From contig OZ240248.1 of NCBI GenBank assembly GCA_965198235.1, forward strand, positions 1,152,001-1,216,000: a stretch of DNA of 64,000 nt. Direction: 5' to 3'. Below, one piece after another: positions 35,781 through 64,000 of the stretch. Under the pieces are notes generated by a model. It worked only from the letters and a program-made list of their open reading frames with translations, made no database searches and was not told where the DNA came from. The position numbers and the translations under genes were made by a program. The stretch comes from Candidatus Poribacteria bacterium (GTDB taxonomy: Bacteria > Poribacteria > WGA-4E > WGA-3G). How positions within the stretch are numbered: the first letter of the stretch is position 1; each line of letters starts with the position of its first letter.

Positions 35781-36911
35781 ATGACTGGCATTTTGGTGCT
35801 CTGTCGATCCAGAGGAACTTGGAGGCGCGCGCTCCGTATTGGAATAAGTTGTGTTCTTTTCGGACTTTCAACGATACTCGCAAACGCAGATGGAGAGAAA
35901 ACGATGGCACATACAACGTATTCAGTAGCCGTAGAAACAGTAAGTGCCCTTGGGTCAAAATACCAAGTTTACTACATCCAGCAAGATGGAAAAGCTGTCG
36001 CTGAGATCGTGCCCGCACTTGGTAATAACTGCTACGCCTTTAAGGTCGCAGCTGGGGATACTTGGTTGAACCTGATAGATGAACCACCGGATCTCGCCAC
36101 CTTGGAGGAACGTCCGACCGCTTACGGCAATCCGATTCTGTTTCCCTTCCCCAATCGAATCCGGAACGGCAAATGGCAATTTGAGGGAGAAACCTATCAG
36201 TTTGACAAAGCACCCGACTCTCCAACAACAATCCACGGTTTGTTGTTGAATCTACCGTATCAGGTTGAAAGCCATGTCGCCGATGAAAACCGAGCAACGC
36301 TCGTATGCTCACTTAACTCTCAAGATTTTCCCGATGTTGGTCGCCAGTATCCGTTCCCTTTTAGAATTGAGATTACCTATACCCTCAAAGATACCGTGCT
36401 AACGATGGGGATTGCTATCAAAAATACGGGTGACCGGAATATGCCTGTTGGGTTCGGTATCCACCCCTATTTTAGCGTAGACCTCGGCACTGAGGCGAAT
36501 GCAGCCGAAGCGATAATTACCGTACCTGCCGCTAAGTATTGGGAATTGGACGAGGTCCTCGTGCCAACGGGTACACAGCACGATGTCGCTGACACACTGG
36601 ATCTCCAAAATGGACAGCCGTTCGCGAAACTGAAACTCGACCATGTCTTTACGGACGTTCAATTGGTTGATGGCGTAAGTCGATGCCTCATTGAGAACCG
36701 AGATACCGGATACGGCATGGTGATGGAATCGGATGCACAGTTCAGGGAGCTCGTTGTCTATACGCCGCCTGATAGGAATGCTATCTGTTTTGAGCCTTAC
36801 ACCTGCCCGACGGATGCCATCAATTTAGAGGCGAGGGATATCCCAGCAGGTGTGATTGTGCTTGCCCCTGATGAAATGTTCTCTGGAACCGTTCGCTTTA
36901 TGCTGCAATGA
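35781..36911 (+). CDS. Aldose 1-epimerase family protein (alternative start 35904)
   Basis: PFPNRI, IHG, GIHPYF, ICFEP. Confidence 0.88.
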   Translation: MTGILVLCRSRGTWRRALRIGISCVLFGLSTILANADGEKTMAHTTYSVAVETVSALGSKYQVYYIQQDGKAVAEIVPALGNNCYAFKVAAGDTWLNLIDEPPDLATLEERPTAYGNPILFPFPNRIRNGKWQFEGETYQFDKAPDSPTTIHGLLLNLPYQVESHVADENRATLVCSLNSQDFPDVGRQYPFPFRIEITYTLKDTVLTMGIAIKNTGDRNMPVGFGIHPYFSVDLGTEANAAEAIITVPAAKYWELDEVLVPTGTQHDVADTLDLQNGQPFAKLKLDHVFTDVQLVDGVSRCLIENRDTGYGMVMESDAQFRELVVYTPPDRNAICFEPYTCPTDAINLEARDIPAGVIVLAPDEMFSGTVRFMLQ

Positions 36912-37867
36912 AAGTTATCGCACTGCTGATTTTTTCGATTTTGCTTCTAACCGCGCAGCCGTCTATGGCAATCCGAGAGGGCACAACGACCGCTAAGGTC
37001 TTTATCAAACGCTACGCGCAGTCCGGCGATTTTGGTAGACTTGCCCTCTGGCACGAAGCCGCCGCAGAATGTCTCACGCGCATCTCTGTTCCGATGAACG
37101 AGATTGCACACGCTTATTATATACGGCACGGATACGAGCAGTGGGCAGCACGCGCTGAAAAAGAGGCGAGTGAGATTCAGAAACAGCACCAATATCACCT
37201 CACTCGCGCCGAGATTGCTTGGCAAAAATTTGTGGGAGGGGTGTTTTTGCTTGGGTGTTTCCCTAGTAACCCCGATGCTTTTTCGGTGCTGGATGCTGAA
37301 CGCCGAAATATCGAAAAATTTATCGCAACGTGGCTACCGCGCTACCCAAATCGGTTTTACGAATTTGGTATCTATCCCACCTTTTTCAGGAAACAGCGGG
37401 AGTTGGCAGAGCAGGAGGGGAGTTACGCCAAAGTCTTGCGTCTCGAAGCAGATGCCGCGGAGATGTGTGCCGCGCAGTATCAACAAATTCCAATCGTCCA
37501 TGGACTTAAGCGTTATGAAAAATTTCGGGATGCCTATCTCCGACATGCAATACACCTTCGCGAACTCGCAAAGCAAAATCCAATGACGTTACCACCAGCG
37601 ATAGACAAAGGCAAACAGATATTGGGTTCATTGAAAACTCAGAGGCTCCCTTCTCAGCAAAAAGCAGACGCTGTCATTCAGATCGCAAAATCGGATGCGC
37701 GAGTGAAAACAACTTTAGTCGGTCAAAACGGAGTTCACGCATATCCGTCATTTCAAGGGTTCGCGTGGATAGTGAGTTTCTCGAATCACAGTCGCGGGAA
37801 CCTTGCTACTGCAGTTATTGATGGTAAAACTGCCACGGTGTTGAATGTATTTTCCCCTGTGAAATAG
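36908..37867 (+). CDS. Secreted hypothetical protein with an in-frame repeat insertion
   Basis: ATGA overlap, signal peptide; 37231-37276 is a REP plus micro-insert read as VGGVFLLGCFPSNPD. Confidence 0.7.
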   Translation: MKVIALLIFSILLLTAQPSMAIREGTTTAKVFIKRYAQSGDFGRLALWHEAAAECLTRISVPMNEIAHAYYIRHGYEQWAARAEKEASEIQKQHQYHLTRAEIAWQKFVGGVFLLGCFPSNPDAFSVLDAERRNIEKFIATWLPRYPNRFYEFGIYPTFFRKQRELAEQEGSYAKVLRLEADAAEMCAAQYQQIPIVHGLKRYEKFRDAYLRHAIHLRELAKQNPMTLPPAIDKGKQILGSLKTQRLPSQQKADAVIQIAKSDARVKTTLVGQNGVHAYPSFQGFAWIVSFSNHSRGNLATAVIDGKTATVLNVFSPVK

Positions 37868-45074: not shown

Positions 45075-45279
45075 TGCTCCCTACTCCCTTGCAAACGCTC
45101 CGGCGACTGGGTTTGTTGATGGCAATCGGCAATCGGTGGTCAGCAGTCAGTAGTTTGCTGTGAGAATCAATCCGCCTCTCCCTGCTGGCGAGGTGTTTTG
45201 CTTGGGGTTTTTGCTTGGGGTTTTTGATAGGGTGTTTCTGTGGATTTCTGCGGATTTCCTCTAGTAACCTCGCCTCTTT

Positions 45280-53252: not shown

Positions 53253-53626
53253 TTTCTCTACTGACACGCTTTGTAAATGCCCATTCGCAAAATTCAACTT
53301 TCTAACTATGGGAATCTGTTAACCATCGAAGAAACACCCAAGCAAAAACACTTGTGTTTTAACATCTATAATGGAGTCGAGTTGATGGTTAAACTGCTCT
53401 ACTACGTTCCTTGCCCCTCCCAGTAACGGGCGGGGACCCCGGTTTTCGGTGAATTCCAACCCGCTCCAGATGCGCAAAGGTTTCTGATTTCACCAGGAAC
53501 CATCGTGAAACGAAATTAGGTTTCCTTAAATGGCATAATTTTGCTTCGCAGTGTCCCGCAAGCCTCTATAGGCTTGCGCAGAATGCTTTACATTTGGAAC
53601 GATGCCCAGGGGCTTATAAATTAAAA

Positions 53627-55396: not shown

Positions 55397-56621
55397 ATGC
55401 GAAACACGAACCATAAACTTTTTGATGATAAAACTTTGTGTCACTTGCACGATGACCTGAATATCTGTGGCGTTGTCAAGAACCATTTTCTGGCACTCGC
55501 TATGCGATATTACCGCAGGTATGGTAAGGGACTTTCGTATTCCAAAATGTCGAAGCACCTGACGAAACTCAAGAGGCTTGAGAAGTATAAGCACTGGAAT
55601 ATCCCATACTCATGGGCATTACAGAATGTCCTCAAGCGTCTGGCACAAAGTTTCAAAGAAATGAAAACGTTAGGCAGAGGCCACCCTCAATTCAAGTCCT
55701 GCAAGAAACACAAAGGCATGACGTTTCGGGGTGAACAGGTTAAGATTGAAAAAGTTTTGGACGCGCAGAAAAACGAAAGAAACCACCCGACGTATAAAAT
55801 CCGATTGAACGGACGTTGGTATCGTTTTGCATTACACCGTGAGATAAAAGGCGAAATCAGCCAAGTTCAAGTGACAAGGGACGCACTCGGAGACATGTAT
55901 ATCACCTTCACAGAAGATTACTCGGAAGTGATACTCGAACCCAAGACGGGTAAAGCCGAAGGGTTCGATATGGGTATCAAAGACTTCCTGACTGGCAGTG
56001 ACGGCAAACGATATACCTCTCCGATGTTCTATAAACAGAACGCCAAGACATTGGCAGAAGCACAAAAGTCGTATTCCCGAAAGGTGAAAGGGTCTCAGAA
56101 TCAAGAGCGAGAACGCAAAACTGTTGCGCGTATTCATAAGAAGACTGCGAATCAAAGAGCAGACCACCATTGGAAACTCGCAATAGAGTTGTGTCGGCAG
56201 TTTGATATCCTGTTCTTTGAAGTGTTTTTGCTTGGGTGTTTCGCTTCGCGGTATGAAAAAACTTTGGGGTCAACAGGTTTCTGACCTCGCCTTCGGTGAG
56301 TTTATGCAGAAACTCAAACACCAAAGCAAAAAACGTATCCGTTCTGTGCTGAAGGTTGATAAATGGTCGCCGACCACAAAAGCCTGTTCTGTTTGTGGAC
56401 ATAAAAATGATACTCTCACGTTAGCAGATAGAGAATGGCAGTGTCGAAGTTGTCATACACACTTGGACCGAGACCAGAACGCTGCTATCAATATACTTAA
56501 GGAGGGGGTAGCCTCCTTTGGGTTAGGTGTCGTAAGACCTATCGTTTTGTTCAACAAAATCGTAGGCTGCTCCGTTGAATCGCACAGTCCGATTCTGAAT
56601 TCCACAAGCCTTTCGCGTTAG
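55397..56621 (+). pseudogene. tnpB: TnpB RNA-guided nuclease, frameshifted by a micro-insert at 56222-56242
   Basis: GFDMG (RuvC-I) and FFE (RuvC-II), then a frame change to SLRGMKKLWG...CSVCG...CRSC...DRDQNAAINI. Confidence 0.88.
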
Positions 56622-56675
56622 ATTGCGGAAGCCCCATGCTTTAGCTTGGGGGTCTATCACCAAAGGAGAAAGACC

Positions 56676-57992
56676 ATGGCAGAAGACAGATGCGTACATA
56701 CAGATTGTGAGGGATTTTACCGCCGAGATTTTCTCAAAGCCGGTGCCCTCGGTTTGTTCGGTCTCAGCCTCACAGACCTGTTCCGACTCAAAGCGCACGG
56801 TGCAACCACATTTCAGGGGAAGGAAACCGCTACTTCCGTTATTCTCGTCTGGTTGGGGGGCGGCCCAAGCCACCTTGATATGTGGGATCTCAAGCCGAAT
56901 GCCCCTGAAGAAATTCGTGGGCTTTTCAAACCGATATCGACAAACGTTACCGGTATTCAAATTAGCGAGCATCTTCCCAGGCTCGCTCAACAAACCGATA
57001 AACTCTGCATTATCCGCTCGATGACCTCTCCAGAGGCGGCGCATGAGCGTGGAACACACTATATGATGACAGGTTATCAACCCTTACCGGGTTTTGCTGT
57101 CCCAGGATATGGTGCCGTTGTCTCCAAGCTCAAAGAACAGCGAAGTGCATTACCTCCCTATATTGCTGTGCCTGCGCCAGTCGCTTATGGTGGTGGCGGA
57201 TTTTTAGGCGCGTCGCTCGCACCTTTCTCACCCGGAGGAAACCCGGCAAGCAGGAACTTCAAGGTGCGAGATTTAGAACCTCCCAAAGAGGTTTCCGTTG
57301 AACGCGTTGAACGCCGCCGTTCATTACGCCAAGCCGTTGATGCCGCTTTTAAAAAATATGAGGCAGGCAATCCGGCGGCTAAAGCAGTCGATAGTTTCTA
57401 TACCTCCGCTTACGACCTGATGAGTTCCACCGATGCACGTGCTGCGTTTGATCTCGCCAATGAGACAGGCAAAACGCGCGATGCGTATCAACGGAATACC
57501 TTCGGACAAAGTTGCCTCCTTGCCAGAAGGCTCGTTGAGGCAGGGGTTAACTTCGTCACTGTCAGTAACGGTGGATGGGACAACCACAACAACATCTTCT
57601 CATCGTTGCCGGGTAAACTCAACGCTTTCGATCGGACGATGGCTACCTTAATCGGAGACTTAAGTGATCGAGGATTGTTGGAAACGACCCTCGTTTTGGC
57701 TATGGGTGAATTTGGAAGAACCCCGGTCATTAACCGCAACGGCGGACGCGACCACCATTCCCGTGTTTTCTCGATGATGTTGGTTGGCGGTGGAGTCCGA
57801 GGCGGGCAAGTCATTGGTGCCTCAGATCCACTTGGCATGGAACCCGCGGAGACCCCTGTACGTCCAGAAGACTTGTCAGCAACGCTCTATCGATGCCTCG
57901 GTATTGATTATAATCAGCATCTGGAATCGCCTGATGGCGTTCGCATTGTCCTCTCACGCGGCGGCAAACCCATTCGCGGCGTTCTCGCGTAA
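56676..57992 (+). CDS. DUF1501 domain protein
   Basis: RRDFLK Tat-like motif, GGPSHLDMWDLKP, FGQSCLLARRLVEAGV, GEFGRTP, GRDH. Confidence 0.93.
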   Translation: MAEDRCVHTDCEGFYRRDFLKAGALGLFGLSLTDLFRLKAHGATTFQGKETATSVILVWLGGGPSHLDMWDLKPNAPEEIRGLFKPISTNVTGIQISEHLPRLAQQTDKLCIIRSMTSPEAAHERGTHYMMTGYQPLPGFAVPGYGAVVSKLKEQRSALPPYIAVPAPVAYGGGGFLGASLAPFSPGGNPASRNFKVRDLEPPKEVSVERVERRRSLRQAVDAAFKKYEAGNPAAKAVDSFYTSAYDLMSSTDARAAFDLANETGKTRDAYQRNTFGQSCLLARRLVEAGVNFVTVSNGGWDNHNNIFSSLPGKLNAFDRTMATLIGDLSDRGLLETTLVLAMGEFGRTPVINRNGGRDHHSRVFSMMLVGGGVRGGQVIGASDPLGMEPAETPVRPEDLSATLYRCLGIDYNQHLESPDGVRIVLSRGGKPIRGVLA

Positions 57993-62850: not shown

Positions 62851-62923
62851 GGGGGTGTAGCTCAGCTGGGAGAGCAACTGCTTTGCACGCAGTAGGTCAG
62901 CGGTTCAACTCCGCTCATCTCCA
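62851..62923 (+). tRNA. tRNA-Ala(TGC)
   Basis: Cloverleaf, G3:U70, ACTGC-TTTGCAC-GCAGT anticodon arm; CCA not encoded. Confidence 0.96.

Positions 62924-63010: not shown

Positions 63011-64000
<990 letters not shown>

Follow-up and report, generated by a model that had tools for sequence, protein, structure and literature searches.

Small dispersed repeats (SDRs) of the families SDR1-8 were reportedly described by Elhai et al. in 2008 from Nostoc punctiforme and its relatives, where they are said to lie nested in other repeats, in themselves and in frame in genes, with SDR4-6 structured and predicted to fold; to our knowledge these cyanobacterial repeats, described in 2008, still lack a mechanism. 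Published accounts of SDRs characterize them as tandemly repeated units of ~20 bp that are possibly mobile (PMC2884548) and place the precise insertion point of SDR5 between bases 3 and 4 of HIP1 (PMC4390886), and the SDRs of Nostoc are also treated in a further study (PMC5861425). Here we analyze a 64,000-nt stretch of a Candidatus Poribacteria genome (contig OZ240248.1, positions 1,152,001 to 1,216,000; hereafter the window), in which a 21-nt word, GTGTTTTTGCTTGGGTGTTTC, interrupts tnpB, the RNA-guided nuclease gene of a transposon. We consider it likely that the word is an SDR-like mobile micro-element that knocked out tnpB, and hold with the same confidence that the 21-mer represents the smallest building block of a family of tiny, non-autonomous insertion modules specific to this genus of Candidatus Poribacteria.

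Judged by sequence, the hit gene is an IS200/IS605-type tnpB whose window copy (55397..56621, + strand) is a pseudogene by way of a +13 block. The N-terminal part (55397-56221, 275 aa in frame 0) matches the Pfam family OrfB_IS605 (E 8.6e-16), and the C-terminal part (56244-56621, 125 aa plus the stop in frame +1) matches Cas12f1-like_TNB (E 9e-20). The word adjoins the codons TTC TTT GAA (56213-56221), and a first-pass annotation of this DNA had rightly placed a frameshift directly after these FFE codons of RuvC-II: the frame-0 open reading frame (ORF) 55397..56284 leaves the tnpB frame at the word and meets a stop, and the remainder is open in the +1 frame to 56621. The genome that holds the window (G000; 5.17 Mb, two contigs, 96% complete) carries 13 further tnpB paralogs at 75-83% identity, 12 of which are intact (403-404 aa) and read FFE-DLN-L, with the conserved Glu of the hhhE-DL motif. 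Alignment with all 13 paralogs fixed the exact edit, in which a 22-nt block at 56222..56243 on the + strand (GTGTTTTTGCTTGGGTGTTTCG, the word plus one G) stands in place of the 9 nt GAYYTSAAC that encode Asp-Leu-Asn. Given a net gain of 13 nt with 9 nt swapped for 22, the event is a replacement rather than a pure insertion, as had been proposed from the missing residues. The block is the sole lesion of this copy, both halves having the lengths seen in intact copies (275 aa and 125 aa), and it knocks tnpB out by placing the RuvC-III and zinc-finger part out of frame. We saw no sequence support for rescue of TnpB by programmed frameshifting or RNA-level removal, and no further test of this was made.

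The site within tnpB bears a likeness to other sites used by the word. In four intact paralogs the target reads GAAG-ATTTGAAC-CTTC and resembles the commonest hairpin target, GAGG-TTTGAA-ACCTC, which may explain why the gene was hit at that point; the position beside the catalytic Glu is therefore probably incidental. A native tnpB stretch at 56316..56332 on the + strand (AAACACCAAAGCAAAAA, encoding Lys-His-Gln-Ser-Lys-Lys) also agrees with the reverse-complemented word core at 16 of 17 positions, and together with the inserted word it can form a stem of 17 bp whose arms are separated by 74 nt (region fold -21.9 kcal/mol, z -2.85). Approximately 0.2% of 3000 control windows score as high in the ungapped comparison, and the match is weaker in the other edited tnpB paralog. 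Derivation of the word from the antisense of this stretch was rejected, as a longer gapped comparison was not significant (5-9%) and the match was noticed post hoc.

Scanning the window placed exact copies of the word at 37241 (+), 53331 (-) and 56222 (+), each where it had first been located, together with a copy with 3 mismatches at 45218 (+); chance expectation in the window was 0.00 in 100 shuffles. The word is non-palindromic and without self-complementarity, with a folding energy of 0 kcal/mol on both strands, and a 66-nt array of its family likewise gives 0 kcal/mol. The copy at 37241..37265 (+), which carries the tail CCTA, is an in-frame insert of net +21 within a 319-aa ORF (36908..37867) and is translated as GVFLLGCFP. 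Its context, GGGGT-TT-GTAACCCC (hyphens here and below bound the target bases or the insert), is a small hairpin motif inside that ORF and not an intergenic repetitive extragenic palindromic (REP) element, which corrects the REP loop that had been described. The degenerate tandem form reported in a hairpin at 45193-45240 was seen and extends further, as a modular array of 64-66 nt (45193..45258, +) that includes the 45218 copy and occupies the centre of a REP-like hairpin between convergent genes. The arms of this hairpin are CTGGCGAGG ... CCTCGCC, the array consists of three 13-15-nt GTTTTTG(CTT/ATA)GGG units followed by TGTTTC and two TG(T/C)GGATTTC units, and empty copies of the hairpin family read GCGAGGTTTGAAACCTCGC. 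The third exact copy (53331..53351, -), with the tail TTC, interrupts an arm of a recurring foldback element, CCATCAACTCG...CGAGT^TGATGG, for which flank pairing recovered 4 empty and 4 filled copies (3 with a single word and 1 with a 28-nt array) and a regular-expression search found 12 of 15 copies empty.

A count across the whole genome, proposed earlier as a check, returned 54 exact copies of the word, 143 within 1 mismatch, 199 within 2 and 289 within 3. When hits of the constituent modules were merged and retained at 17 nt or more, we obtained 270 arrays of 17-194 nt distributed chromosome-wide and on the small contig too, so that the word shares with SDRs the trait of a dispersed ~20-30-nt tandem unit. 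The unit reads (G)(T/G)GTTTTTG-(CTT/ATA)-GGG-(T/C)(G/A)-TTTC and is followed by a variable 3' tail of 1-6 nt, mostly pyrimidines. Arrays consist of one or more copies of G(T/G)GTTTTTG(CTT/ATA)GG, then G(T/C)(G/A)TTTC, an optional TGCG(G/T)ATT leading to TC or GCTTGGG, repeats of a second, 10-nt module (TGCGGATTTC), and the short tail, the modules joining at GGG/TTT micro-homologies. Array ends are recognizable in 237 of 270 cases; the four bases before TTTTTG are GGTG in 98, GGGG in 60, AGTG in 44 and AGGG in 13 (together 215 of 237), and the bases after TTTC are YYC-like, beginning TTC, CCC or similar. On the 44-kb second contig, a ~150-nt repeated element (C2:16488-16585) contains word-family sequence at two places, in opposite orientations, and this element occurs elsewhere in tandem without the word (C1:449459-449585).

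The first-pass annotation had regarded the word as mobile, and comparison of filled with empty sites bears this out at paralogous and orthologous positions that otherwise match, across a family occupying ~270 genomic places; matching filled and empty sites are also the trait by which SDRs are taken to be mobile. Flank pairing identified eight host repeat families with and without the word, and regular expressions written for 13 host families found both states in 10. Examples are GCGAGGT-TT-GAAACCTCGC (empty) and GAGGT-GTTTTTGCTTGGGTGTTTCCCTTAA-GAAACC (filled); GTAGGT-TG-GGTTGAAC (empty, 89 copies) and ...GTTTCCCCCA-GGTTGAAC (filled); CACGAGT-T-GATGG (empty, 12) and ...GTTTCTTC-GATGG (filled); and GGAGGG-CG-GATCTACGG (empty) and ...GTTTCTTCA-GAT (filled). 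Filled paralogous sites show a net gain of 19-23 nt, with a mode of 21. At no filled/empty pair, paralogous or orthologous, did we observe a target duplication or terminal inverted repeats; instead target bases are lost, 1-3 as a rule and eight or nine in two cases, one of which is tnpB. The 5' junction is constant and falls directly after purine-G (GAG^, GGG^, AAG^). For comparison with the insertion of SDR5 at a fixed point of one specific target, HIP1, the word has a fixed 5' junction and reused points, no single target word and a variable 3' junction.

Preferred sites are the centres and arms of short REP-like palindromes, and protein-coding DNA is hit too. A flanking inverted repeat of at least 6 bp accompanies 24% of arrays versus 11% in a re-pairing control, indicating that hairpins are favoured and not required. 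Nesting, a further SDR trait, extends to at least 13 host families, to nine in-frame copies in genes and to the word inside the word, with arrays lying within inverted copies as gaaacacc-g-TTTTTGC...TTTC-tt-aagcaaaaac. REP-like short repeat families with GTAG are abundant in this genome (e.g. C1:4434200), among them GTAGGTTGGGTTGAAC with 89 empty copies. One congeneric genome, G048, has no word, yet contains 75 copies of the empty host repeat GTAGGTTGGGTTGAAC, a sign that word and host repeat are independent of each other.

Orthologous loci from other genomes gave the same picture at coding sites. Among 20 aligned loci for the 319-aa ORF, the copy in G000 is filled (net +21), one other species (L016) has a different and longer array there and lacks another 6 nt, and 18 are without the word, most of them reading GGAGGGGT-TT-GTAACCCCGAT. 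A few bases downstream of the word site, at the positions orthologous to 37270-37290 of the window, L016 and L017 carry a 24-nt palindrome insert, GCGTAAGCCTATAGAGGCTTACGG, and L029 carries a 32-nt hairpin insert, which shows that coding DNA in this genus also hosts tiny inserts of other kinds. Of 16 loci for a histidine-kinase gene, 12 are empty (GAGAG-TT-GCGTTCGCG) and four are filled directly after GAGAG or GAAAA, with the tails TCC (G000), TCC after a long array (G004), CTT (G050) and CCCCC (G018). Only 1 base in ~120 separates the flanks of the G050 copy from the corresponding sequence of the empty G012, so this gain is very recent. When 14 further loci from other species were aligned to G000, eight were filled in the other species and cleanly empty in G000, including one in which ~8 nt are replaced inside a GH2 gene (glycoside hydrolase family 2; net +15); one was unclear, and five were filled in both, these including apparently old, shared insertions. 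The same points are thus seen to be hit independently in different species.

The copies within genes carry a signature of selection. Ten arrays keep a single frame open across them and for 120 codons or more on either side, and nine of these are true copies; the tenth, C1:2361551, was discarded as a chance match of the 10-nt module. Eight of the nine lie in genes with Pfam matches (Peptidase_C25, LVIVD, adenylate cyclase/AAA_16/TPR, GH2, TPR/HEAT, AAA_15, histidine kinase and Mur ligase), and the ninth is the 319-aa ORF of the window. They occur in both orientations and several frames, and contribute peptides such as GVFLLGCFP, GVFAWAFPR and ETPKQKPP. Frameshift-like configurations were found at four places, two being the tnpB copies; the other two proved to be ordinary intergenic spacers between adjacent genes. 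Nine in-frame copies with frameshifts confined to tnpB imply that selection removes out-of-frame copies except in redundant tnpB: the +13 copy is tolerated in a redundant, selfish gene, and in essential or ordinary genes only in-frame copies survive.

In-frame selection also speaks against the explanation that the word is an adapter, a primer or an assembly error, as do hundreds of dispersed copies in a two-contig genome. The reach of the word across assemblies argues in the same direction. It was found in 18 of 18 genomes of the same genus and in 0 of 12 from other families within the order. Among 150 genomes drawn from across the phylum and searched at up to 2 mismatches, it was present in 54 of 56 from the genus (5-223 hits each; G048 and G070 had none) and in 8 of the 38 from the sister genus (1-5 hits apiece, several near a contig start), with 0-1 hits per genome in other genera, and a reversed control pattern never matched any genome of either set. 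A one-genome-per-species scan of all prokaryotes returned at least 80 matches, and among the matches listed all were "Candidatus/uncultured Poribacteria" or unnamed metagenome-assembled genomes, these public records coming from several differently named assembly series. Dozens of congeneric genomes, each assembled independently, share the word; this excludes an origin in adapters or primers, which had been named as a finding that would undo the interpretation, and an artefact is refuted for the family as a whole. What an artefact has in its favour is confined to the left tnpB junction, across which no read contig was found, and we give it next to no credence.

For that junction, we consulted reads from four runs in the form of short Logan contigs, and no listed record bridges 56221/56222 with 31 letters per side, so the check in reads that had been proposed did not reach it. 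One RNA-library contig spans 56217-56345, taking in the word together with its right junction and the next 103 nt, but it extends only 26 letters leftward from that junction and was not counted. Support for the tnpB edit thus comes from the assembly and from a second paralog that bears its twin. Contigs from four sponge metatranscriptome-library runs match parts of the window tnpB (55400-56700) at 100% identity, and since DNA carry-over is possible in those libraries, they do not show transcription of tnpB.

The twin, at C1:2575576, contains the identical 22-for-9 replacement in the same place, likewise as its only lesion. The two edited genes share 81% identity, each is closer to intact paralogs than to the other, and the sequence they share beside the block is limited to 11 nt to its left and 4 nt to its right. 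The twin is a mosaic, with one 100-nt window 100% identical to one paralog and other windows 94-97% identical to three others. This is the general condition of the 14 tnpB paralogs on C1 (e.g. 2575576-2576789), which are patchworks whose 100-nt windows are 94-100% identical to different paralogs at an overall identity of 75-88%, a pattern indicative of frequent exchange between copies. Since the pair is identical at both junctions and independent hits elsewhere differ in tail or deletion, we lean towards a single insertion followed by exchange between paralogs rather than a second hit. The second lesion would then have arisen by short-tract exchange, with the insert acting as a heterology block and conversion tracts ending at the block edges. 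The junction 31-mer of tnpB occurs only in G000 among 61 genomes of the genus, in which repeats are often unassembled when the genomes are bins.

How the word inserts can be outlined from its junctions, though we put forward the mechanism itself, one-sided templated synthesis with imprecise rejoining, only tentatively and would not give it even odds. A target 3' end in purine-G would prime synthesis where a word template begins, this template most likely being a copy elsewhere in the genome; slippage among modules may occur; and the new strand would be rejoined to the target imprecisely, leaving a tail and a small deletion. The templated insertion suggested by the first-pass annotation survives to the extent that it fits the constant 5' junction, the variable tail and modules joined at micro-homologies, and arrays are explicable by jumps at GGG, TTT or TT between few modules; as a mechanism it is inferred. 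The very recent G050 insertion carries a non-consensus word, which suggests that existing genomic copies can be the template, and fits copying from such copies better than copying from one conserved master. The fixed 5' boundary is hard to get from random micro-homology and hints at a defining nick or end. For the suggestion that the word patches DNA breaks we found no direct evidence, and the genome yielded neither Ku nor a reverse transcriptase (no RVT_1 match in the two contigs, with controls responding).

A bolder and less probable version holds that the word is moved by dedicated machinery, free of reverse transcriptase, that copies a discrete conserved template onto the target 3' end. 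Such machinery would account for the precise start, a run-off end with added pyrimidines and a sloppy second junction, as in target-primed retroelements but with DNA. In our search of G000, no enzyme, discrete template or source locus was found, and the source of the 21-mer that was to be traced therefore did not emerge. The genome encodes one Cas1 with a CRISPR array of 56 repeats, and this was dismissed as a source of the word because the CRISPR repeat is unrelated to it; the Cas1 lies in a 546-codon open frame beside the array (C1:2732009-2738047), whose repeat is ...CTTGAAACGAAAAGCATCTCGATTACGAGATTGAAAC with a spacing of 72-79 nt. Four GIY-YIG hits were likewise set aside as candidate machinery, as they do not cluster with words.

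The absence of a dedicated enzyme from this search is what would be expected if the word were passive cargo, that is, a part of REP- or miniature inverted-repeat transposable element (MITE)-like host repeats, spread by mobilization of those repeats (for example by REP-associated tyrosine transposases (RAYTs) of the Y1 type) and by short-homology gene conversion, with the hits in coding DNA and tnpB being rare micro-homology template switches of the replication fork and no machinery of the word's own. Most copies do lie in recognizable short host families, at one fixed point in each; of six Y1 genes in the genome, three are RAYT-like and have hairpins of the type GCACTCCAGCGGAGTGC at their flanks; the insertion at 37241 is derivable from a filled hairpin copy via GGT and GTAACC micro-homologies; and the non-consensus word of G050 is compatible with the same origin. 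The 5' boundary, however, is constant over at least 13 unrelated host families and over non-repeat coding sites that share only purine-G, whereas random micro-homology switching should yield 5'-truncated copies. The histidine-kinase site, hit in several species, is without homology to any host repeat, and the tested RAYT does not track the word: G048, which is word-free, has it at 82% identity, and no close match was found in G036, which had more words than any other genome in the phylum draw. That RAYT was accordingly rejected as the mobilizer. We therefore regard passive cargo as an unlikely account of the family.

Several observations nonetheless weigh against an SDR-like mobile micro-element. 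Many of the 270 copies may be passive passengers of host repeats, in which case independent insertions could be tens, not hundreds. The tnpB pair is identical at both junctions though independent hits at the same site differ, and so the pair is not good evidence for site-specific insertion. The recent word in G050 departs from the consensus at two positions, targeting of hairpin loops had to be abandoned as a general rule since it holds for a minority of arrays (24%), and neither the searched-for enzyme, template nor source locus was recovered. The compared genomes are kin and mostly metagenome bins, and the tnpB junction is without read-level confirmation.

The possibility that the word is instead a functional motif, kept and repeatedly recruited as a binding site for protein or RNA or as a regulatory or nucleoid element in hairpin loops with the tnpB copies as by-products, draws on its conservation and placement. 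The same consensus is maintained across species whose coding DNA is only 70-88% identical, variation is confined mostly to a few positions, and arrays are enriched between genes, with 59 of 270 inside stop-to-stop ORFs of at least 600 nt versus 82% of genome positions. Such a role sits poorly with the lack of a leading- or lagging-strand bias (135 vs 132 arrays, on a skew profile that is itself irregular), with copies in genes in both orientations and all frames, with two congeners entirely without the word, with array lengths that vary freely within one host family, and with an insertion that destroys a gene. When the window was searched against Rfam, the sole matches were a tRNA and the beginning of a 23S rRNA gene, and no family matched the word. 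We consider retention of the word for function very improbable. The tRNA occupies 62851-62923 of the window, and the 23S rRNA gene begins at 63011 and runs to the window end.

An SDR-like micro-element remains the reading we prefer, and comparison with other short repeats sharpens it. REP elements, bacterial interspersed mosaic elements (BIMEs) and REPINs are mobilized by RAYT (Y1) transposases (PMC3116915). Like the word, these elements are short, highly repeated, mostly intergenic, palindrome-associated and arranged in mosaic clusters, and the hosts that the word invades resemble REP-like elements, several of them carrying GTAG. The word differs in being non-palindromic and in occurring with and without a host repeat; its lack of self-complementarity, together with the distribution of the tested RAYT, led us to reject it as a REP or REPIN. 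A MITE was rejected because there are no terminal inverted repeats and no target-site duplication, target bases being lost instead, and a reverse-transcriptase product (retron, group II intron or defense-associated reverse transcriptase (DRT)) because the genome has no RVT_1 match.

Templated insertions at repaired breaks or stalled forks are known from bacterial quasi-palindrome template switching and from eukaryotic polymerase-theta end joining. They resemble the word in that short stretches are copied without target duplication, one junction showing micro-homology and the other filler bases with small deletions; they copy nearby or random sequence once, whereas the word exists in hundreds of copies that start at a fixed 5' boundary, and it is conserved genus-wide. 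The BOX elements of Streptococcus pneumoniae are modular (boxA-boxB(n)-boxC), with modules of 45-60 nt that fold, and like the word family they are dispersed repeats in which one module varies in copy number; we know of no BOX that enters coding DNA in frame or replaces target bases.

The closest likeness is to the Nostoc SDRs, which are also ~20-nt dispersed units, often tandem or nested, thought to be mobile, too small to encode anything and found inside other repeats, and for which precise insertion at a fixed point of short palindromic targets is described (PMC4390886). The likeness is one of behaviour only: the sequences are unrelated, and the carriers are Candidatus Poribacteria and not Nostocaceae. 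The T/G-rich unit of the word is further set apart by having no hairpin, by its variable 3' tail and the loss of target bases, and by arrays built from two module types. Full-text searches of the Poribacteria literature on repeats and palindromes and of the literature on SDRs showed no description of the word repeat among the papers listed. The family appears to be a new, non-palindromic variant of the SDR kind.

Very small mobile repeats are among the least understood forms of mobile DNA, and the word family adds a second, independent system in another phylum. With many near-complete genomes, two word-free congeners and a nearly word-free sister genus, it also lends itself to comparisons aimed at the gene or template responsible, and its junction anatomy constrains the mechanism through the fixed 5' end, the variability of the tail, the loss of target bases and the reuse of sites. 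If dedicated machinery did move the word, it would represent a new class of bacterial mobile DNA, 21 nt long, unstructured and genus-wide, which both disables transposon nucleases and adds peptide loops to proteins. Collectively, the effects on the genome are that 7-15 residues are added to ordinary proteins, REP-like hairpins are remodelled and the RNA-guided nuclease gene of a transposon is inactivated, all by an unusually small, non-hairpin mobile DNA in one genus of sponge-dwelling Poribacteria.

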